Virus genome (UHGV): UHGV-0121259
DNA length: 16,603 bases
DNA from: a virus
Reading direction: 5' to 3' (one strand)
The notes beneath the pieces are model-generated. The model was given only the letters and a program-made list of their open reading frames with translations, searched no databases and had not been told where the DNA came from. How positions within the stretch are numbered: the first letter of the stretch is position 1; the number at the start of each line of letters is the position of its first letter. A program made the position numbers and the translations under genes. Positions 1,566 to 8,721 of the stretch are shown piece after piece.

Positions 1566-2066
1566 GCTAGGGGTCAGTTTGGATATCGAAAATTATCGTA
1601 CGTAAAGGTTGATTTTTGTACTACTAGGCTGCGATAAGGGAGATAGACCACGTTGATAGGATGCTTTGAGCGAAGTGCAGACATTTTACTCATGGCAGTG
1701 GAGCGTTCCCGATTAATTAGACAGCACTTTCCAGTAACAAATTTAATTTGTATTTTTCGATCCCGGACAAGCAATACTTGTTGCAATTGATGATCGATGA
1801 ATTCTTTTTTGAGTGCCTGCAACGATTAACATCATTGGTAATCACGGAAAGTAAGATGTCTTAATACTTGCATATCTTTAACAGAAAATTCATGTAGTTG
1901 ATGACTATGATGGTCATCGCCTTTAATGAAATATCTACGTCCCAAAATCCCGTTCTAACCGCGAGTAAAATATCCGGCGTGGGGCATCAGGGAACAACGG
2001 CTGAAATTATCCCGCATTACGCTGGCGCCAGCTTAGCCCTGGCCACCAGCTTGAAGGGAGTTTCCG

Positions 2067-3008
2067 CTATTGATTTCTGAAGAACGCGGTCCTTGAAAGG
2101 GTCATTTGCGTCTGGCAGTCGACCATTTTCTTGACTTCAGCATCTGTTCCCTGCATTGAAACTTTACCGCACATAGCGTCCTTAGTTTTGATCCACTGGC
2201 GCTGAGAAGGCAGCAACTCTTTTTTCTTCTCTGGTGTTAATGTGCTCCAAGCGGTATTCAAATCAGAGTCAGCATTCGCAAAAGCCATTCGGGACTGATC
2301 AAGGTTGTCAGCTTTTTGTTGCTGAGGCTGCTGGTAGGATTGTTGTTGAATGGTTTGCTGAACCTGCTGCTCCGCCTCATATTTAGCCTGTTGCTGCGCC
2401 CTGAGTTGTGCCTGTTGTTCCGCTTCAATTTGACTTTGCTGGGCATCCTTAGCCTGCTGGATTTTCTGCTGCTCAACGATCGGGTTGATGATGGAAAGCG
2501 ATGTCAGTGCAGCGGCACCCACTGATATTGGGTTATCAGAAGAAGCTTTCACAAAAACGTTTTTCTGATCGTCGGTTGCCTGTGCGGTGTAGGAGATGCG
2601 TTTTGAAAAGGCGTTTGCGTTGTTATCCAAAGACAGGCTTTCCATTTGCTTGTCGAGATTACGGTTAAAGTTCTTTCTGTAAGCATCAGAAAGCTGTGCG
2701 TACTCGTTCGCAGGTAGGGTCATCGTCACGGTCCCTTCACAAGTTTTCATTGTGCTGCCCGTGTCACTTGAAGTTGTGGAGATTTCAGAGATGGTCAGTT
2801 TAATCTTGTCCAAAGCGCTTCGTTTGGTCTGATTAGTGACGTCAGGGTATTTGTCGACCTGTTCAGAGAGACCTTCATAAGCAGATTTTTTTATTAAATC
2901 CATGAGAGCTGACTGGGTCATTTCAGAGGAACAACCGATCACGTCTTTTTTGTTATCACAGCCTGTAATGGCAACGGCGAGTAAGAGTGCTGAGTATTTT
3001 AATCTCAT
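2067..3008 (-). CDS. lipoprotein with Gln-rich coiled-coil segment and C-terminal DUF1311 (LprI-like) domain
   Basis: Lipobox LLAVAITGC at the N-terminus; central Q/A/E-rich heptad-like stretch; C-terminus (ADSDLNTAWSTL...QRQWIKTKDAMCGK...VDCQTQMTLSRTAFF) fits the DUF1311 pattern of a conserved W, two Cys and an Arg. Confidence 0.7.
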   Translation of the reverse strand: MRLKYSALLLAVAITGCDNKKDVIGCSSEMTQSALMDLIKKSAYEGLSEQVDKYPDVTNQTKRSALDKIKLTISEISTTSSDTGSTMKTCEGTVTMTLPANEYAQLSDAYRKNFNRNLDKQMESLSLDNNANAFSKRISYTAQATDDQKNVFVKASSDNPISVGAAALTSLSIINPIVEQQKIQQAKDAQQSQIEAEQQAQLRAQQQAKYEAEQQVQQTIQQQSYQQPQQQKADNLDQSRMAFANADSDLNTAWSTLTPEKKKELLPSQRQWIKTKDAMCGKVSMQGTDAEVKKMVDCQTQMTLSRTAFFRNQ

Positions 3009-3459
3009 GAGTTCCCTTTAGAGTAAGGATTGGCTTTTAAGAGGCGGTCTGTAATCAGTCTGGAGGGCTATAGCAAACAGCGCTGAACACTGAACGCATC
3101 ACAAGCAAGAACCAAGGTGGTATCGGCAAAGACTGTGGAATCTTTAATTCAACTGATGAGAACGGTATGCACAAGGTTCAGTATCGATTATCCCGATGCA
3201 GGAAACCTGCAAGGCAGGTTTTGCTGCTGAACTTAAAAAAAGCTAGGTAAAGTCGGTACTGGCGTACCATTTATGACCTTTCACCTCCGCGGTGCACGAA
3301 AAAAATTCCGCAGAAATTCGTTCTTGGCTCATGTGTTCTGCTCCCTTCAAATTAATGCAGACCAAACTTAGCAACTTCCGCTCCTGGCACGAAGCCGACT
3401 ATACGCCTGAAGTATCATAGCTTAATTGGTTCTCTACACTCGCCACTGGGAGCGACTAC

Positions 3460-4104
3460 CTACGTTCTCTTCCCCCGTCCCATCTTCAGTACCTCATAAA
3501 AGGTCCCTCGCCCAAGCCCGTCTGACAACAATTCTCGCTCCTGAGCCAGCGTTTTCAGCTTTCGAAGTATCCGATCCGAAGCCGGCTTATCAGACGTCCC
3601 GTAACGCCCGTCAGTCTCCTCAACCAGAAGCTGAACCAGTAGCCAGCAGAGTCGGGCTGTATTCTCCCGCGCTTTGTCACGCTTATGCATCCCACGCTGG
3701 GAAGGTTGTGCTGAAGCAGTGAGATCCGGTAGCGCATCGTCGCCGAGTGTCTTCAGCCACTTGCGGCCACGGCTGTTGCGTGACAGTTTCATCACCGCCT
3801 TAAGGCTGCGGGCCTTAATTTCTGGCGGCGTGAGTTCGTCATCAATAAGCCGCCAGGCCAGGGCAAACATTTCATCGGCATAGAACATGCGTTTATTCGC
3901 CGGGGCGCTGATCATGCCCGTTGCTTTGATGGTGCGGCTGATGGCGTCGTGCAGGATACGGTAATTTTCCTGATGTTCTTCCGGCAGGGCGTTTGCAGGT
4001 TGGGAAGCATCGAGGCCGAGAAGCAGAAGGGCGAGATGCCGCGCTTCCAGCAGCGGCATATCACATTCCCGTTCAAACAGATTCTGACTAATGGGGCTGG
4101 TCAC
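3460..4104 (-). CDS. hypothetical protein (about 214 aa) coupled to integrase
   Basis: GTG start at 4104 lies 6 nt after a strong AAAGGAG Shine-Dalgarno embedded in the integrase 3' end; the integrase stop is at 4106-4108. No family recognised. Confidence 0.55.
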   Translation of the reverse strand: MTSPISQNLFERECDMPLLEARHLALLLLGLDASQPANALPEEHQENYRILHDAISRTIKATGMISAPANKRMFYADEMFALAWRLIDDELTPPEIKARSLKAVMKLSRNSRGRKWLKTLGDDALPDLTASAQPSQRGMHKRDKARENTARLCWLLVQLLVEETDGRYGTSDKPASDRILRKLKTLAQERELLSDGLGRGTFYEVLKMGRGKRT

Positions 4105-4105
4105 A

Positions 4106-5353
4106 TTATTCTCCTTTCACGATCTGCAGCGGTTCTTCTGCACCGAGCAGCGCCTGTCGTCTGGCAGCATCAACGTAGTTTCCCCACCACTGCATCAGCG
4201 GTCGCCTTTGTTCCAGGTAATCGCTGCGGTTATAGGCCGCTTCGATCTCGTCTTCTTTCTGGTGTGCCAGCGCAGATTCCAGAACTTCACGGGGGAAATG
4301 ACCTGCGCCTGCGGTCCTGGCGATGCTGCGCATGCCGTGGGCGACCAGTTCACCGCCAAACCCCATACGGATAAGCGCGGCGTTCGCGGTCTGTTGGTGC
4401 ATATGCTCCAGTGGTTTGCGAATGCTGGGGAAAACCCACGGACGATGGCGGCTGACTGGCTCCATGATCTGAAGAACGCGCAGTGCCTGTTTGCTGAGCG
4501 GCACCGTATGCGAACGGTTCATCTTCATAAAGGTGTCAGGGATACGCCATTCTGCTTTTTTCATATCGATGTCACACCAGCGGGCGCTAACGGCTTCGCC
4601 GGGGCGAACCCAGGTCAGTAGCTCCCATTCGATAAGGCAGCGGGTTTCCTTGCGGATAGAGGCGTTCTGTAGTGCCAGCATCAGCCTACCCAACTCGCTG
4701 GGGTGGAGTGCGGGCATGTTCTGCTTTTTCGGTTTCTTGAAGCGGGCGACCAGGTTGTCAGCCGGATTGAACTCGATGAGCTCTTCGGAGATGGCAAAGC
4801 GGAAGATTTCATTGAGCCGCGAGATAACCCGCCGCAGCGTTTCGAGGATGCCCTGTTCTTCCAGCGGTGTGAGGTGTTCCTTGAGTATTTTCGGGCGGAT
4901 CTCGGTGACGGGCGTATGGCCCAGAGAAGGAAAGACGTGCATCTCCAGCGAACGCCAGATATCTTTGACGTGATCTTCGCTGAGTCCACAGGTCCGTTTT
5001 TTCTCTTCCAGCCACTGTCCGGCTACCTTTTCCAGCGTGCATTCATTCTGGATGCGTTTTTCTTCGGCCATTTCAGCTAAGTGTTGACGAGGATCGATGC
5101 CCTGCCAGAGCAGTCGTCTGTACTGTGTGCGAGTTTCGCGGGCCATCGCCAGTGTAACGACCGGGTAAGGGCCAAGGCTGGTTTTGGTGCGCTTTTTGGT
5201 GACGGGATGATAATACTCGAAATGCCAGGCCTTCCTCCCTGAAGTCTTAACCAGCAAGTACAGGCCTTCACCGTCCCGTAGCTCATAATCTGTGCTACGG
5301 GGCTTCGCGCCAGCGATCTCCACATTTGTTAAGGGTTTCAGTTGCTTAGGCAT
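4106..5353 (-). CDS. int: P4-family tyrosine integrase (site-specific recombinase)
   Basis: 415 aa; N-terminal arm-binding region (KPLTNVEIAGAKP...DGEGLYLLV) and C-terminal catalytic region with conserved His/Arg/Tyr context (HGMRSIARTAG...ALAHQ...AYNRSDYLEQRR), resembling CP4-57 IntA-type integrases. Lies immediately downstream of the ssrA 3'-end att copy on the same strand. Confidence 0.9.
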   Translation of the reverse strand: MPKQLKPLTNVEIAGAKPRSTDYELRDGEGLYLLVKTSGRKAWHFEYYHPVTKKRTKTSLGPYPVVTLAMARETRTQYRRLLWQGIDPRQHLAEMAEEKRIQNECTLEKVAGQWLEEKKRTCGLSEDHVKDIWRSLEMHVFPSLGHTPVTEIRPKILKEHLTPLEEQGILETLRRVISRLNEIFRFAISEELIEFNPADNLVARFKKPKKQNMPALHPSELGRLMLALQNASIRKETRCLIEWELLTWVRPGEAVSARWCDIDMKKAEWRIPDTFMKMNRSHTVPLSKQALRVLQIMEPVSRHRPWVFPSIRKPLEHMHQQTANAALIRMGFGGELVAHGMRSIARTAGAGHFPREVLESALAHQKEDEIEAAYNRSDYLEQRRPLMQWWGNYVDAARRQALLGAEEPLQIVKGE

Positions 5354-5357
5354 GTTT

Positions 5358-5397
5358 TAGCACCACACTTTTTTAGCCCCACGATACCGTGGTGCTA
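5358..5397. promoter_or_regulatory. dyad symmetry in the integrase leader (TAGCACCAC / GTGGTGCTA, with inner palindrome CCACGATACCGTGG)
   Basis: 9-bp inverted repeat spaced about 22 nt, directly upstream of the int start codon at 5353 and covering its weak ribosome-binding region; possible operator or translational control hairpin. Confidence 0.3.
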
Positions 5398-5451
5398 AAC
5401 ATGGTGCCAAAAGGTCAAAATTCATACAGAGATCATGACCACACATGCAAC

Positions 5452-5489: not shown

Positions 5490-5519
5490 AAGGTTCATGA
5501 TGCATCATGAATGAATGTT

Positions 5520-5564
5520 TGGTGGAGCTGGCGGGAGTTGAACCCGCGTCCGAAATTCCTACAT
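5520..5564 (-). repeat. ssrA: 45-bp fragment of the ssrA (tmRNA) 3' end; attachment-site core shared by the two elements
   Basis: Minus strand reads ATGTAGGAATTTCGGACGCGGGTTCAACTCCCGCCAGCTCCACCA, matching the tmRNA 3' acceptor/T-arm and CCA tail as I recall the E. coli sequence. DNA 5' of it (5565 onward) is AT-rich and unrelated to tmRNA, so this is a partial copy, not a gene. Confidence 0.85.
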
Positions 5565-5649
5565 ACCATTTTTACCATAATGAAAACAGTTGTTTGTATT
5601 TAAAAACAGTATGTTAGTGTTGTTTTGTGTTAGTCCGTTTTATCCGTTT

Positions 5650-6717
5650 TTAACTCTCTGCCGCCACTTTGTCGCCATTAAAGGTAAGCAGAGGATCCGT
5701 TTTACCACTATAAGTGGAGATAACTTGAAAGATTGGTACATCATACTTTGCTATCAAATCTGCTATCATGAAAATCTTGCCAGAAGATGCATCGTCTTTG
5801 TATGAAAAAAAATCATCTGTAATATCAAGAATGTCTATCGTAAATTTAAAGTAAGTCGCTATGGTATTTCCAAGCTCACTACTAGACATGAAGTTTGTGA
5901 AAATTTGATATCCTTCTGTAGATAAGGAGGCATGTTCATTTAAACTGACAGTGGTCAAACACAACATCCGGTTTAATTTTAATAGTTTAAATTCTATTGA
6001 ATGTAGTGCTTGCATTTGACGCACTAGAACGTCATTGATATCTAACCCTTTATTCGATGAAGCAAAGCTTTCCATGGATTTAAGAATTTCGAGCCAATAT
6101 TTATTGATTTTTTTTATATATTCTTTATTTGCTTTTGCTGGCCTACCTTTTTCTGGGTTGCTTTCGTCAAATATATATCTATATAAATGTATAGGGTATG
6201 AAACCTTGCATGTAATCTCATGTATTTCAAGGTGGCGTTTGCGATGAATTATTTGGCCAGGTAAATTAGTAAAGTAATCAGTGACAAATTTCAAATGGCT
6301 ATAATGACTATCTGAAAGATTTTTTTGTTTAGCCTCCTGAATCTGTCGATTTGTTTGAACTGTCCGATGAATGTTAGCTACTACGGCAACAAATGGTATG
6401 GATAAAGAAAGTAACGCGATGGGAAGTTTGCTAATAGCAATGAAATTATTAAATCCATCACTGTTAAATTGCGGACTATGTCCAAGCCAGGAAAATAAAC
6501 CAAAATAAAATGATGATAGTAATGGTATCCTTATTGATTGTTTGAATAAGTATTGTTTTGTTAACGGTCTTTCATCCATTTCAAAAGCTTTTTTATTTAT
6601 ACAGAGTGTTAACTCAATAAACACATATAACACATACAAAGATATTAGTGCATATGACAGCCATGAATGTTGTTGAATAAAATCGTTAATAAACACTTTT
6701 TGAGTTTCTCCATCCAA
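5650..6717 (-). CDS. AT-rich membrane-anchored protein of unknown function (about 355 aa), cargo gene between att core and prophage integrase
   Basis: Long ORF in a markedly AT-rich segment (by eye) unlike flanking phage DNA. Three hydrophobic helices in the first ~120 residues, then a ~235-aa K/N/I/Y-rich soluble domain. The start codon is uncertain (TTG at 6717 or GTG at 6696); both overlap the integrase 3' end. Confidence 0.6.
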   Translation of the reverse strand: MDGETQKVFINDFIQQHSWLSYALISLYVLYVFIELTLCINKKAFEMDERPLTKQYLFKQSIRIPLLSSFYFGLFSWLGHSPQFNSDGFNNFIAISKLPIALLSLSIPFVAVVANIHRTVQTNRQIQEAKQKNLSDSHYSHLKFVTDYFTNLPGQIIHRKRHLEIHEITCKVSYPIHLYRYIFDESNPEKGRPAKANKEYIKKINKYWLEILKSMESFASSNKGLDINDVLVRQMQALHSIEFKLLKLNRMLCLTTVSLNEHASLSTEGYQIFTNFMSSSELGNTIATYFKFTIDILDITDDFFSYKDDASSGKIFMIADLIAKYDVPIFQVISTYSGKTDPLLTFNGDKVAAES

Positions 6718-7726
6718 GATTAGCTAGTGGATTCTTTGTTACTGCATCTTCTAAATGGTCGGGGGCAAAGTGGGCGTAAACCATCGTCATTTTTATATCG
6801 GCATGACCCAAAATATCTCGCAGTACCAATATATTTCCGCCGTTCATCATAAAGTGGCTGGCGAATGTATGGCGCAGCACGTGGGTGCATTGCCCCTCCG
6901 GCAGATCAATACTGGCCCGCTTTACTGCCCGCTCAAAGGCTTTTCTGCATGGCGTGAATAACTTCCCTCTGTTTTTGGGGAGTTCTTCATACAGATCCTG
7001 AGAAATAGGCACGGTACGGTTTTTCTTGCCCTTGGTCTTGGTATAGGTGATCCGGTATTTCGATAACTGATGGCCCTGCAGGTTTTCGGCTTCACTCCAG
7101 CGCGCGCCGGTGGCCAGGCATATTTTTGCAATCATCAGCAGGCTGGGGCTTTGAGATTCCGCGCAGGCATCCAGTAGGCGTTTAATTTCTTCCGGAGCCA
7201 AGAACGCCAGCTCACCTTCTGCGATTTTAAATGTTGGTAGCCCGGCGAGAGGGTTTGGTGCTGACCAGTGGCCTAGCTTTTTCAGGGTGCCAAAAACCGA
7301 TGATAGGTTACGTTGTTCGAGGTTTACCGTTCGGGGCTTAACTGGTGACATAAACGCGCCATCTTCATTTCGCATTTCACCTTTTAGCCGCGCTTCCCGA
7401 TATTTTGTGAAATCGGCTGCCGTTAACTCTGAAGCAACCGGATCGCCCAGACCATTACAAATAATGTTGAGTTTCGCCATTAGACGTTTCGGATCCGCAA
7501 GCGTCTGACCGTAGAGTGAGTGCCATTGCTCAATTACTTCTGACAAGCGCCGCCGATCTTCCTTCTCACCAAGCCATGGCTTTTTGTTCACTTCATCCAT
7601 GGTGAAGTTTTCGAATGCTACGGCCTCACCTTTCGTCGCAAATTGCTTGCGCACGCGTTTGCCGTCGCGTCCGTTTGGGTAGCATTCACACAACCATTTT
7701 CCGTTCGGCTGCTTTCTGATGGTCAT
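6686..7726 (-). CDS. int: P2/186-family tyrosine integrase
   Basis: 346 aa; N-terminal arm-binding type fold (KQPNGKWLCECYPNGRDGKRVRKQFATKGEA) and C-terminal catalytic box HVLRHTFASHFMMNGGNILVLRDILGHADIKMTMVYAHF. ATG at 7724-7726, three nucleotides downstream of the repressor stop, as in the P2 C-int operon. Confidence 0.9.
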   Translation of the reverse strand: MTIRKQPNGKWLCECYPNGRDGKRVRKQFATKGEAVAFENFTMDEVNKKPWLGEKEDRRRLSEVIEQWHSLYGQTLADPKRLMAKLNIICNGLGDPVASELTAADFTKYREARLKGEMRNEDGAFMSPVKPRTVNLEQRNLSSVFGTLKKLGHWSAPNPLAGLPTFKIAEGELAFLAPEEIKRLLDACAESQSPSLLMIAKICLATGARWSEAENLQGHQLSKYRITYTKTKGKKNRTVPISQDLYEELPKNRGKLFTPCRKAFERAVKRASIDLPEGQCTHVLRHTFASHFMMNGGNILVLRDILGHADIKMTMVYAHFAPDHLEDAVTKNPLANLGWRNSKSVY

Positions 7727-7729
7727 AAG

Positions 7730-8362
7730 TTAGAGGCTCTTGATTACTTTTATAGCACGGCCTACAACCTCGATATCATCAAGGCTGCACTCAAAAGATG
7801 ACTCACCCTGCTGGACAATTAAGCGATTGCCGGGGATGCGTGCAAGTTTAGCTATCGTTTTTATTCCATCAATATCAACGAGCCATACGCCATTTACTGG
7901 TGGAGTACCGCTACGGTCAACGAGGTAAGAGCCATCGTCTGTATGGATGAGCCACGGATTAGTCATGTTGTGGGGGATTAGACTTTTATCCAATATCACC
8001 TTGCCTTGGTCCACTAAAGCGCCACCATCTAATGTGGCCTTATCAATTTCAGGCGCTACAACCTCGGATAACGGTTTGATGTGGGGCTGGTTCACAAAAC
8101 CAAAACTATTTTCCTGCGCATTATTATCATTTTTATCACCTTGCCCAGTCGTTAACCAAAGCAGCGAAACCCCAGTTTCAAGAGCGCACTGTATAACCCA
8201 TTCTGCAGGGAAGCTATCTCTTAAGTATCTGTTTGCCATAGTGCTTTTTGAAACGGAAAGATGGTCACACAACTGCTGTCGAGAGTTGAAGTTATAAGCC
8301 TTAATCAGCCTATTGATAGCTTCACGCCCTCCGCTCTCATTACCTACCTTGATAGATCTCAT
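7730..8362 (-). CDS. phage CI-type immunity repressor (186-like size class)
   Basis: About 210 aa directly upstream of and co-oriented with int, divergent from the early operon; N-terminal region has an HTH-like segment (QQLCDHLSVSKSTMANRYL). No GDSM-type S24 peptidase motif seen, so probably not autocleavable. First ATG at 8360-8362. Confidence 0.65.
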   Translation of the reverse strand: MRSIKVGNESGGREAINRLIKAYNFNSRQQLCDHLSVSKSTMANRYLRDSFPAEWVIQCALETGVSLLWLTTGQGDKNDNNAQENSFGFVNQPHIKPLSEVVAPEIDKATLDGGALVDQGKVILDKSLIPHNMTNPWLIHTDDGSYLVDRSGTPPVNGVWLVDIDGIKTIAKLARIPGNRLIVQQGESSFECSLDDIEVVGRAIKVIKSL

Positions 8363-8374
8363 AAGCAAAACCCT

Positions 8375-8402: not shown

Positions 8403-8478
8403 TCATTCAAGGTTTGAAAAACAAACCTAAACCCTATAAAACGAGATAAATCGAAACCAAACTAAGAGATACTGCACT

Positions 8479-8721
8479 ATGAGCACTGATATTTCAATTC
8501 GTGTACCTAAAGAGATGGCTACGCCTGCAGAGTTCGCTGAATGGGAAGGTATCTCCCGTGGTTCTGTTTACCAGAAAATTCACCATGGTCAGCTTGCTAA
8601 GTACATGGTCAAGAAAGAAAAAAACAAAGGTCGCGTAAGTCTGCGTTACCTGATGTACAAAACCGACCAGGTTCGAGAATCCCTCGGTCATTCCAACTTT
8701 CGCGTCATTGTTGGTCAGTAA
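8479..8721 (+). CDS. Cox/Apl-like small DNA-binding protein (excisionase and switch regulator position)
   Basis: 80 aa, first gene of the operon divergent from CI; winged-helix-like segment ATPAEFAEWEGISRGSVYQKIHHGQL; position equals P2 cox / 186 apl. Confidence 0.5.
   Translation: MSTDISIRVPKEMATPAEFAEWEGISRGSVYQKIHHGQLAKYMVKKEKNKGRVSLRYLMYKTDQVRESLGHSNFRVIVGQ

Follow-up and report, generated by a model that had tools for sequence, protein, structure and literature searches.

Repeats beside the ssrA core of a Fels-2/186-type prophage are candidate IHF and Apl sites, with the predicted integrase arm-type sites lying beyond them

On the phage side of the attachment core of an integrated P2-like prophage, short direct repeats crowd into less than 90 bp, which raises the question of which protein they serve: the integrase, to which a preliminary description had assigned them as candidate arm-type sites, or other components of the recombination complex. 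The window analysed here, the whole stretch of 16,603 nucleotides of the virus genome UHGV-0121259, contains a prophage of the Fels-2/186 type, belonging to the P2 family and inserted in ssrA, of which positions 5565-5680 form the int-proximal att arm. The integrase gene (6686-7726, minus strand) codes for a tyrosine integrase of the 186/Fels-2 type with matches to Pfam Int_N and Phage_integrase and to PHROG integrase families, and the int region is 81-87% identical at the nucleotide level to SEN8, Fels-2, MLG42 and Cartapus. The same prophage encodes a 186-type CI and CII and gpA. The apl gene (8479-8721, plus strand) codes for a Cox-like excisionase and repressor, whose identity over 79 amino acids is 100% to the Apl of Fels-2 and whose identity to that of 186 is about 31%, and which matches the PHROG families for excisionase (E = 4e-39) and 'Cox-like excisionase and repressor' (E = 5e-28). 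Between the att arm and int, a cargo gene of 355 amino acids was identified, for which no match was obtained in Pfam, NCBIfam or PADLOC.

At the int-proximal junction of the prophage, the core is a copy of the last 45 nt of ssrA (tmRNA; 5520-5564, minus strand). It was recognised by the Rfam tmRNA model with high posterior across the last ~45 model positions, while no complete tmRNA was identified by ARAGORN. SEN8, MLG42, Cartapus and Fels-2 carry the same 45-nt block in their attP. This ssrA copy also doubles as the junction of an island with a P4-type integrase to its left. It is followed by a phage-specific flank (5565-5582) with a conserved ACCATTTTT at 5565-5573; the columns of this core flank in the profile of related arms (124-133) are conserved at 0.69-0.95, and the flank may contain the phage-side core-type half-site of the integrase.

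The repeats themselves were found where they had been described, with AAAACAGT at 5583-5590 and 5603-5610 and CCGTTTT at 5635-5641 and 5644-5650. The 16.6-kb window contains no AAAACAGT beyond these two copies, and the CCGTTTT pair extends to (T)CCGTTTT, that is, to TCCGTTTT at 5634-5641 and 5643-5650. Measured from 5564, where the identity to ssrA ends, every copy lies at 19-86 bp, so that their nearness to the att core was also confirmed. Further units of the same arrays had been left out of the preliminary description, namely GTGTT(A) at 5617 and 5627 and TGTTAGT at 5612 and 5628, as had a third ATCCGTTTTA at 5695-5704 and a GCCGCCA/GTCGCCA tandem at 5660-5677. An inverted repeat (5561-5574 and 5601-5614, 86% complementary) was also considered as a structural element and was rejected, since its pairing is lost in SEN8, Fels-2 and MLG42.

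For the conservation profile, 105 distinct related arms were used, whose identity to the window across this region is 36-83%. These were retrieved by a pattern requiring TGGCGRC and the core, so that the conservation of these two elements is partly by construction. The cores of both the AAAACAGT and the CCGTTTT repeats hold fixed columns in the 105 arms, and the bases between them vary. The repeats were found at the corresponding position in related prophages with the same integrase, where their absence would have counted against the preliminary description. The proposal that they are phage-side att elements thus stands, as they are conserved and look functional; their assignment to integrase arm-type sites does not.

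For 186-type integrases, the arm consensus is tgccGCCActt (PMC3448106), and the GenBank record of 186 (NC_001317) gives YAYCGCCAYTY. Two tandem sites with an 11-bp period, TGCCGCCACTT at 5659-5669 and TGTCGCCATTA at 5670-5680 (plus strand), match the consensus exactly and lie just outside the interval of the repeats. This tandem is unique in the window, where 0.03 are expected by chance, and 5659-5680 is the most conserved block of the arm, a ranking for which the search pattern partly selected. In the attP of SEN8, MLG42 and Cartapus, a GYCGCCA tandem flanks the core on both sides. The true arm-type sites of the integrase are therefore most likely those predicted at 5659-5680, about 10 bp (10-30 bp) beyond the repeats. 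The repeat interval, in turn, corresponds to the part of the experimentally mapped 186 attP where the footprint of IHF and five operators of Apl are located.

Each AAAACAGT copy forms the 5' (WATCAR) half of a box that reads AAAnCA-N5-TTR in the 105 arms and matches the IHF consensus with one mismatch. Box 1, AAAACAGttgtTTG at 5583-5596, contains the first copy, and its occupancy is uncertain; box 2, AAAACAGtatgTTA at 5603-5616, contains the second (both plus strand). The mismatch to WATCARNNNNTTR is the same in both boxes, A for T at position 3. Over the whole window, matches to the IHF consensus show no enrichment (36 observed, 28.9 expected), so only the conservation profile is informative for IHF. 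In this profile, the CA and TT of the boxes are kept at 0.90-1.0 with the N positions free; in box 1, AAAACA is kept at 0.84-1.0 and TT (5594-5595) at 0.98-1.0 around a variable spacer. With at most one mismatch, WATCARNNNNTTR is present at offset 5584 in 70% and at offset 5604 in 81% of the weighted relatives, and box 2 matches perfectly in 11%; none of the other offsets in the 105 arms, on either strand, exceeds 15%. The boxes are also kept in ssrA-integrating relatives with P2-type arm sites (tgTGGaCa, not GCCGCCA; PMC3448106), and in 186-type loci at other tRNA targets with different repeats in the region of the recombination directionality factor (RDF), which shows that they do not track the RDF.

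The comparison with 186 separates the two boxes. Counted from where the core identity ends, the first consensus base of box 2 is at 40 bp, compared to 41 bp from the crossover in 186, and the 186 IHF footprint (21057-21086, also numbered 2058-2087) centres on the core-distal box, so that box 2 is the positional equivalent of the IHF site footprinted with DNase I. 186 also carries AATCAAtagtATG at the distance of box 1 from the crossover; however, the footprint is not centred there and reaches it with its edge only. The positional correspondence to the footprinted site thus holds for box 2 and not for box 1. Taken together, the conserved pattern suggests that the AAAACAGT repeats are most likely candidate IHF sites. 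The sequence AAAAC is common to both types of repeat, and Apl could also touch the AAAACAGT boxes.

IHF could not fully occupy two sites spaced by only 20 bp, and since the 186 footprint centres on the distal box only, the IHF reading does not account for box 1. The distance of the box pair to the arm sites is fixed in 186-type att sites, whatever the tRNA or tmRNA target or the RDF. A speculative and rather improbable explanation is that the two boxes of the same orientation, 19-20 bp apart, represent alternative IHF registers, or that the pair is a site for a second factor. With two registers, IHF would occupy the distal box for integration; when Apl filled the operators abutting the distal box, IHF would move to the core-proximal box, and the bend, displaced by two helical turns, might contribute to directionality.

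Between the boxes and the arm sites, four hexamers were identified on the minus strand in an exact 10-bp phase (5617-5652): CAACAC at 5617-5622, TAACAC at 5627-5632, TAAAAC at 5637-5642 and TAAAAA(C) at 5647-5652. The CCGTTTT pair, read on the int strand, gives TAAAAAC and TAAAAC and is thus the complement of the two outermost hexamers. The hexamer columns (5617, 5627, 5637 and 5647) are retained with at most one mismatch in 52-89% of the weighted relatives. This is the arrangement by which an RDF-binding array is recognised, at least three direct repeats about one helical turn apart, here four at 10 bp. The ATCCGTTTTA copy at 5695-5704 was considered as a fifth operator and was rejected: it lies inside the cargo open reading frame past the arm sites and is missing in the Kp4865-2 homologue. 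For TAAAACG, about two occurrences per window are expected by chance, and this copy is probably a chance occurrence.

A second array was identified in the spacer between cI and apl (8417-8466, plus strand), where five A-rich units follow each other with a 10-bp period (aaaaac, ctaaac, taaaac, taaatc and ccaaac), including TAAAACGAGATAAATC at 8437-8452. From its sequence and place, this array is predicted to contain the Apl operators of the lysis-lysogeny switch, which we consider probable. With at most one mismatch, TAAAACNNNNTAAMAC was found in the window only in the arm and in the cI-apl spacer; its three matches, compared to 0.13 expected, were reached in 0 of 200 shuffles, for a pattern picked after the sequences had been seen. 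Among 14 sequence classes of the cI-apl spacer, all from loci with a Fels-2-type Apl, TAAAAC is the most widely shared hexamer (13 of 14), and it was derived independently. TAAAACNNNNTAAMAC is present in 11 of the 14 class representatives, where the chance for each is at most 1.3%, and TAAAAC-N4-TAAMAC is conserved across the 14 classes; one class has TAAAACGAACTAACAC where the window arm has TAAAACGGACTAACAC.

Inside the window, dinucleotide shuffles showed no significant k-mer sharing with the cI-apl spacer (P = 0.14-0.23), in a test that covered both the hexamer array and the box region and in which array and spacer are both A-rich. The assignment to Apl therefore rests on evidence at the level of the family. 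In other groups, group-specific repeats in the ~40 bp beside the arm sites recur in the group's own cI-apl spacer, such as TGGCAA, TGGCCCTT, TTGATAA, TTATTGAC and ACATATAAA, and CTCACCAC in L200; this comparison was based on an automatic extraction, which failed for many loci. The strand relation of arm and spacer is not uniform among the groups (L054, L038/L048). Between subgroups of Fels-2-type Apl (66-72% versus >93% identity), no clear difference in spacer motif was identified. In one locus with an Apl of 49% identity (L011), two Apl-like genes lie in tandem, and the comparison of arm and spacer did not yield an obvious motif in common. As the hexamers stand in 10-bp phase and TAAAAC is present in the spacers of relatives sharing this Apl, the CCGTTTT repeats are predicted to be operators of Apl, the excisionase, which is probable; Apl is presumed to be the ligand of the TAAAAC arrays. 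In the literature searched, no description of TAAAAC as the operator of a Fels-2-type Apl was found.

We infer the protein that binds each element from the observed sequence, positions, conservation, phasing and correspondence to 186. It is likely on these grounds that the arm is composed, outwards from the core, of two IHF-like boxes, four TAAMAC hexamers and two arm-type sites of the integrase. By analogy to 186, an IHF-induced bend at the core-distal box would allow the integrase bound at the GCCGCCA sites to reach the core as well. Upon prophage induction, Apl would bind cooperatively to the phased TAAAAC array, which recurs beside its own gene in the cI-apl spacer, and bound Apl would re-shape the arm for excision. 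The repeats are real and conserved parts of a Fels-2/186-like att site, whose architecture is ordinary and already understood.

Among other explanations, we consider it unlikely that all of 5583-5652 is one RDF-binding region, with AAAAC in two orientations and no IHF at the AAAACAGT boxes. The AAAAC shared by both repeat types is also present in the cI-apl spacer, TAAAAC is matched with at most one mismatch at both boxes, on the apl-sense strand, in 57-77% of the arms, and 186 Apl is known to spread past its specific sites (PMC7498355). However, the boxes are devoid of the strongly conserved leading T of the hexamers and have a conserved CA-N5-TT instead, and they are spaced by 20 bp and not by 10, while 186 Apl needs three adjacent operators (PMC7498355). 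Moreover, groups with very different repeats in the RDF region (TGGCAA, TGCA-type or TTATTGAC) retain the boxes, and an IHF footprint is located at the same position in 186.

A/T tracts bend DNA intrinsically, and in the arm A5-6 and T4-5 tracts recur at a 10- or 20-bp phase. It is nevertheless quite unlikely that the phased tracts of the arm act mainly by intrinsic curvature, or by way of a different nucleoid protein (Fis or HU, for example), rather than specifically by IHF and Apl. Bases outside the tracts are conserved too, namely the C of TAAAAC, the CA and TT of the boxes and the leading T, and in other groups the A-tract array is replaced by GC-containing repeats (TGGCAA). Since these repeats stand in for the A-tracts at the same place, a protein-specific code is argued for.

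That the region is AT-rich spacer DNA with chance repeats and no sequence-specific role is very unlikely, even if the preliminary description rightly urged caution on this point. Of 5000 shuffles of 5570-5659 with dinucleotides preserved, 4.8% contained two or more exact 8-mer direct pairs within 30 bp, and 0.7% reached the six 7-mer pairs that were observed, so that the sequence alone gives a modest excess only; for the window, two copies of AAAACAGT were reached in 36 of 200 shuffles and three of TAAAACG in 68 of 200. It is the conservation among the related arms that counts. There, the repeat cores remain at fixed columns with variable bases interspersed, although the 105 arms are only ~76% identical (median), the spacing from core to arm sites is free of indels in nearly all of them, the phasing is exactly 10 bp, and the layout is shared by loci at other tRNA targets.

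Finally, it is extremely unlikely that AAAACAGT and CCGTTTT are arm-type sites to which the prophage integrase binds with its N-terminal domain: they are short direct repeats on the phage side within 90 bp of the core, and relatives that have the same integrase retain them, but neither resembles tgccGCCActt or YAYCGCCAYTY, which is itself matched 10-30 bp further out; in the attP of SEN8, MLG42 and Cartapus only the int side carries the AAAACA boxes and the TAAAAC array, which are missing from the other arm, where the GYCGCCA tandem stands; and the AAAACA boxes are kept in relatives with the P2-type arm sites TGTCCAC (L013-L016) and hence do not track the arm-binding domain.

The result is mainly a correction of the annotation, in which the arm sites are placed at 5659-5680 and the repeats nearer to the core become candidate IHF and Apl sites. 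It provides a concrete candidate operator for Fels-2-type Apl, TAAAAC in 10-bp phase, and maps a minimal int-proximal arm of ~116 bp (5565-5680). Such a map is needed for judging the excision ability of ssrA prophages, or for the use of the Int/Apl pair as a tool. It also explains where cargo genes can enter and leave recombination unharmed, namely between the arm-type sites and int. The current understanding of site-specific recombination is not altered by these results.

The closest experimental reference is the attP of phage 186, studied by the Egan, Dodd and Shearwin laboratories (PMC7498355), for whose int side, the 'right' arm, the crossover, the IHF footprint, five Apl sites and two arm sites are annotated (NC_001317). 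Since operator sequences are missing from the text of the paper on 186 Apl, the operators were taken from the GenBank coordinates. The order of elements is shared, with the core followed by the IHF site, phased Apl operators, two arm sites of the integrase and int, and the distances are within 1-2 bp of those in the window; from the first base of box 2 to the first GCCGCCA-type heptamer, 58 bp were counted in 186 and 56 bp in the window. Also shared are the GCCA-type arm consensus, the two IHF-like boxes 20 bp apart, and the presence of the RDF motif between cI and apl. In contrast, the target of 186 is a tRNA-Ile gene and not ssrA, and its more distant Apl recognises an operator of the TTGCCA/TGGCAA type, compared to the presumed TAAAAC here. 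186 has five Apl units and the window four clear ones, orf69 lies between arm and int in place of the 355-aa cargo gene, and the IHF site of 186 has been footprinted, whereas the sites of the window are predicted from sequence.

The nearest relatives, Fels-2, SopEPhi, SEN8, MLG42 and Cartapus (Felsduovirus and ssrA-integrating P2-like phages), share the core, the arm-type tandem, two AAAnCA-N5-TT boxes and a TTAAAAAnnnnTAAAAC array, in register and with no indels. The exact doubled AAAACAGT and TCCGTTTT are specific for the window, while relatives contain, for example, AAAAACAGC, AAATCATT or CGCGTTTTT, and the cargo between arm and int is different or missing.

In phage P2, which belongs to the same family as the prophage described here, the RDF Cox binds repeated boxes in attP and in the early promoter region (PMC3936717; PMC7498355); P2 uses Cox and C proteins, which form another group than Apl and CI. 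The attP of phage lambda contains the Int arm sites P1, P2 and P'1-3, the IHF sites H1, H2 and H' and the Xis sites X1, X1.5 and X2. Its directionality is switched by an RDF that binds direct repeats spaced by about one helical turn (PMC7498355, PMC4880445). Lambda likewise depends on a heterobivalent tyrosine integrase and on IHF bends which bring the arm sites to the core; however, the integrase subfamily and the site sequences differ from those of the window, the Xis sites are located on the int-distal arm, and Xis is not a repressor of the switch.

The last 45 nt of ssrA were identified with Rfam at positions 5520-5564 on the minus strand, and no complete tmRNA gene is present in the window. 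To the right of this core copy, the window contains a 186/Fels-2-type prophage of the P2 family, which codes for a cargo protein of 355 amino acids (5650-6717, minus strand), an integrase (6686-7726, minus), a 186-type CI (7730-8368, minus) and an Apl-like protein of 80 amino acids (8479-8721), as well as CII, a Dam methylase, gpA and the portal protein. The Apl-like protein shows 100% identity to Fels-2 Apl and about 31% to Apl of coliphage 186, and PHROG assigns it to the 'excisionase' and 'Cox-like excisionase and repressor' families. The nearest phage records are SEN8, Fels-2, SopEPhi, RE2010, MLG42, Cartapus and several Klebsiella phages. Left of the core copy, the P4-type integrase of a second element was identified (4106-5353, minus), so that two elements are stacked at ssrA with the core copy common to both. 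Immediately upstream of this integrase gene, about 110 bp from the core copy, a TTTTAGCACCAC-like 11-12-mer occurs four times at 5355-5412, direct at 5355 and 5371 and inverted at 5389 and 5402; they may be arm-type sites of the second element or serve in its autoregulation.

Arm-type sites are direct repeats flanking the core on both sides, with the consensus tgTGGaCa for P2-type and tgccGCCActt for 186-type integrases (Nilsson et al. 2011, PMC3448106). In GenBank, the 186 record (NC_001317) gives the arm consensus YAYCGCCAYTY, with three sites on the left and two on the right. In the window, two tandem sites match the 186-type consensus, TGCCGCCACTT (5659-5669) and, directly after it, TGTCGCCATTA (5670-5680). 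This arrangement, written as GYCGCCA-N4-GYCGCCA, occurs once in the window, where 0.03 occurrences are expected by chance, and the circular attP sequences of SEN8, MLG42 and Cartapus carry the GYCGCCA tandem on both arms. This places the predicted arm-type sites 9 bp outside the interval 5582-5650, in which the preliminary description had proposed two short direct repeats, AAAACAGT and CCGTTTT, as candidate binding sites of the integrase. That role was not borne out, since these repeats do not match the arm consensus, and similar elements are confined to the int side in the attP of SEN8, MLG42 and Cartapus. On the other arm of these three attP sequences (positions ~555-600), a GC-rich hairpin with a T run, AAAAAGGGGCTACG...CGTAACCCCTTGTTTT, directly follows the ssrA 3' end and is presumably the terminator for the ssrA gene reconstituted in the lysogen.

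The repeats themselves are present as described. AAAACAGT is located at 5583-5590 and 5603-5610, with no further copy in the window, and CCGTTTT at 5635-5641 and 5644-5650, lengthening to TCCGTTTT with starts at 5634 and 5643. Among 5000 dinucleotide-preserving shuffles of 5570-5659, two 8-mer direct pairs at most 30 bp apart were reached by 4.8% and the observed six 7-mer pairs by 0.7%. The single sequence thus exceeds chance only modestly, and the earlier caution about chance repeats was justified for the sequence taken alone. A third exact ATCCGTTTTA was found at 5695-5704, within the cargo reading frame and past the arm sites. It is missing in the Kp4865-2 homologue (77% identical), about two chance occurrences of TAAAACG are expected per window, and the copy is probably fortuitous.

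Related arms were obtained by an integrase search of species-representative genomes and by one viral-contig scan with TGGCGRC-N(85-112)-core. This resulted in a gap-free alignment of 105 distinct arms with 36-83% identity to the window (median 76%), in which conservation is blocky and the bases between the conserved blocks are free to vary. The blocks comprise both arm sites, whose conservation is partly imposed by the TGGCGRC required in the search; TAAAAAC (5652-5646) and TAAAAC (5642-5637) on the int strand; AACAC (5631-5627) and TAAC (5616-5613); and, on the plus strand, AAAnCA (5603-5608) with TTA (5614-5616) and AAAACA (5583-5588) with TT (5594-5595). In this comparison, which the preliminary description had proposed, the cores of both repeat types are conserved. 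The spacing from core to arm sites of about 95 bp is free of indels in nearly all arms, consistent with a fixed nucleoprotein geometry. For 186-type integrase loci at many tRNA and tmRNA targets (L017-L086), a layout constant within 1-2 bp was identified, consisting of a pair of arm sites, group-specific phased repeats over about 40 bp, a pair of IHF-like boxes 19-20 bp apart and the core; it lies just downstream of int, at about 5500-5700 in most loci and further downstream in some.

The established IHF consensus is WATCARNNNNTTR. Each AAAACAGT copy opens a box AAAnCA-N5-TTR (box 1, 5583-5596; box 2, core-distal, 5603-5616) which corresponds to this consensus with one mismatch, A for T at position 3. 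When the consensus was slid along both strands of the 105 arms, more than 15% of the weighted sequences matched with at most one mismatch only at 5584 (70%) and 5604 (81%, including 11% perfect matches). In the window sequence alone, consensus matches are not enriched (36 versus 28.9 expected). Both boxes are retained in the ssrA-integrating relatives L013-L016, whose arm sites are of the P2 type and whose repeat array differs. They are also found in 186-type loci that use other tRNA targets, at +43 and +63 bp relative to the arm sites; the repeats adjoining the arm sites of these loci are quite different. The boxes are tied neither to the arm-binding domain nor to the excision protein (RDF), a pattern consistent with a host factor. 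With a spacing of 20 bp, full occupancy of two IHF sites at once is not possible. For 186, two IHF-like boxes exactly 20 bp apart were likewise identified, AATCAAtagtATG and TATCATtgacATA, and the DNase I footprint of IHF is centred on the distal one. Given this crowding and the position of the footprint, box 2 is predicted with fair confidence to be an IHF site, and box 1 is an IHF-like element of uncertain occupancy.

The integrases of L013-L016, from Photorhabdus, an Enterobacteriaceae MAG and Franconibacter, are 69-71% identical to that of the window, with the same ssrA core. Their TGTCCAC-like arm sites lie about 110-125 bp upstream of the ssrA core copy, near locus positions 5525-5545, and their phased repeat array differs, for example TGTTAnCCAT two to three times in L015. 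This suggests a modular exchange of the arm-binding domain and RDF region with core specificity retained.

On the int strand, the CCGTTTT region reads TAAAAAC-GGA-TAAAAC-GGAC-TAACAC-AAAA-CAACAC, that is, four hexamers starting exactly 10 bp apart (5647-5652, 5637-5642, 5627-5632 and 5617-5622), a pattern conserved in the family. Direct repeats at intervals of one helical turn are typical of RDF operators, and the four hexamers are probable Apl operators. For 186, the Apl motif is present both at attP and between pR and pL (PMC7498355). The cI-apl spacer of the window (8417-8466) contains five A-rich units with a 10-bp period, including TAAAACGAGATAAATC. Grouped by sequence, the spacers of 92 loci encoding a Fels-2-type Apl (66-100% identity) form 14 classes, which reflect differences in CI type. 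TAAAAC is the hexamer most widely common to them (13 of 14 classes), and TAAAAC-N4-TAAMAC with at most one mismatch was identified in 11 of the 14 class representatives, each with a shuffle chance of at most 1.3%; one class carries TAAAACGAACTAACAC, with TAAAACGGACTAACAC as the counterpart in the window arm. Within the window, this spaced pattern, picked after inspection of the data, has two matches in the arm, one in the spacer and no others, with 0.13 matches expected and three reached in 0 of 200 shuffles. In other groups, the 40 bp or so adjoining the arm sites hold repeats which reappear in the same group's own spacer, for example TGGCAA, TGGCCCTT, TTGATAA, TTATTGAC, ACATATAAA and, for L200, CTCACCAC. 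Against the operator reading, the strand relation of arm and spacer varies among groups. Plain k-mer sharing between arm and spacer within the window alone is not significant (P = 0.14-0.23), because both are A-rich. Descriptions of Fels-2-type Apl operators or IHF sites were not found in the literature searched. Unusual duplications of the switch region among P2-like prophages were seen in L011 (Plesiomonas MAG), where two Apl/Cox-like genes follow the switch in tandem (1700-2400), and in L200, with two tandem CI-like genes (2020-3516).

The cargo reading frame, located between int and the arm-type sites, matches only PHROG 17460 (function unknown); neither Pfam, NCBIfam nor PADLOC gave a match. 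This slot is empty in SEN8, Fels-2 and MLG42, whereas Cartapus has a RES-domain protein there and several E. coli prophages have GapS1; with contents so varied, it resembles a hotspot for cargo or defence genes. The final 20 or so codons (5650-5712) extend past the end of the PHROG profile and read through both arm-type sites, and the stop codon (5650-5652) supplies the initial TAA of the outermost TAAAAAC, so that coding sequence overlaps the recombination sites.

By analogy to 186 and lambda, a bend introduced into the arm by IHF would allow Int, held at 5659-5680 by its N-terminal domains, to reach the core. Upon induction, Apl would polymerise on the phased TAAAAC array beside the IHF box, thereby remodelling the arm for excision, and it would bind the switch region via the same motif. 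In the 186 record, the int side contains, in outward order, the predicted crossover, the IHF footprint (28-57 bp past the crossover), five TTGCCA-like Apl sites spaced 10-11 bp, two arm-type sites, orf69 and int. The first base of the distal box is 41 bp from the crossover in 186 and 40 bp from the end of core identity in the window, and the GCCGCCA-type heptamer of the first arm site begins 58 and 56 bp beyond that base, respectively. By these distances, the repeats of the window occupy exactly the positions of the IHF and Apl sites of 186. The attachment-site architecture is the same as that of 186 attP and is in this respect already known, as are the published arm consensus and the integration of Fels-2 and SopEPhi into ssrA (PMC3448106).
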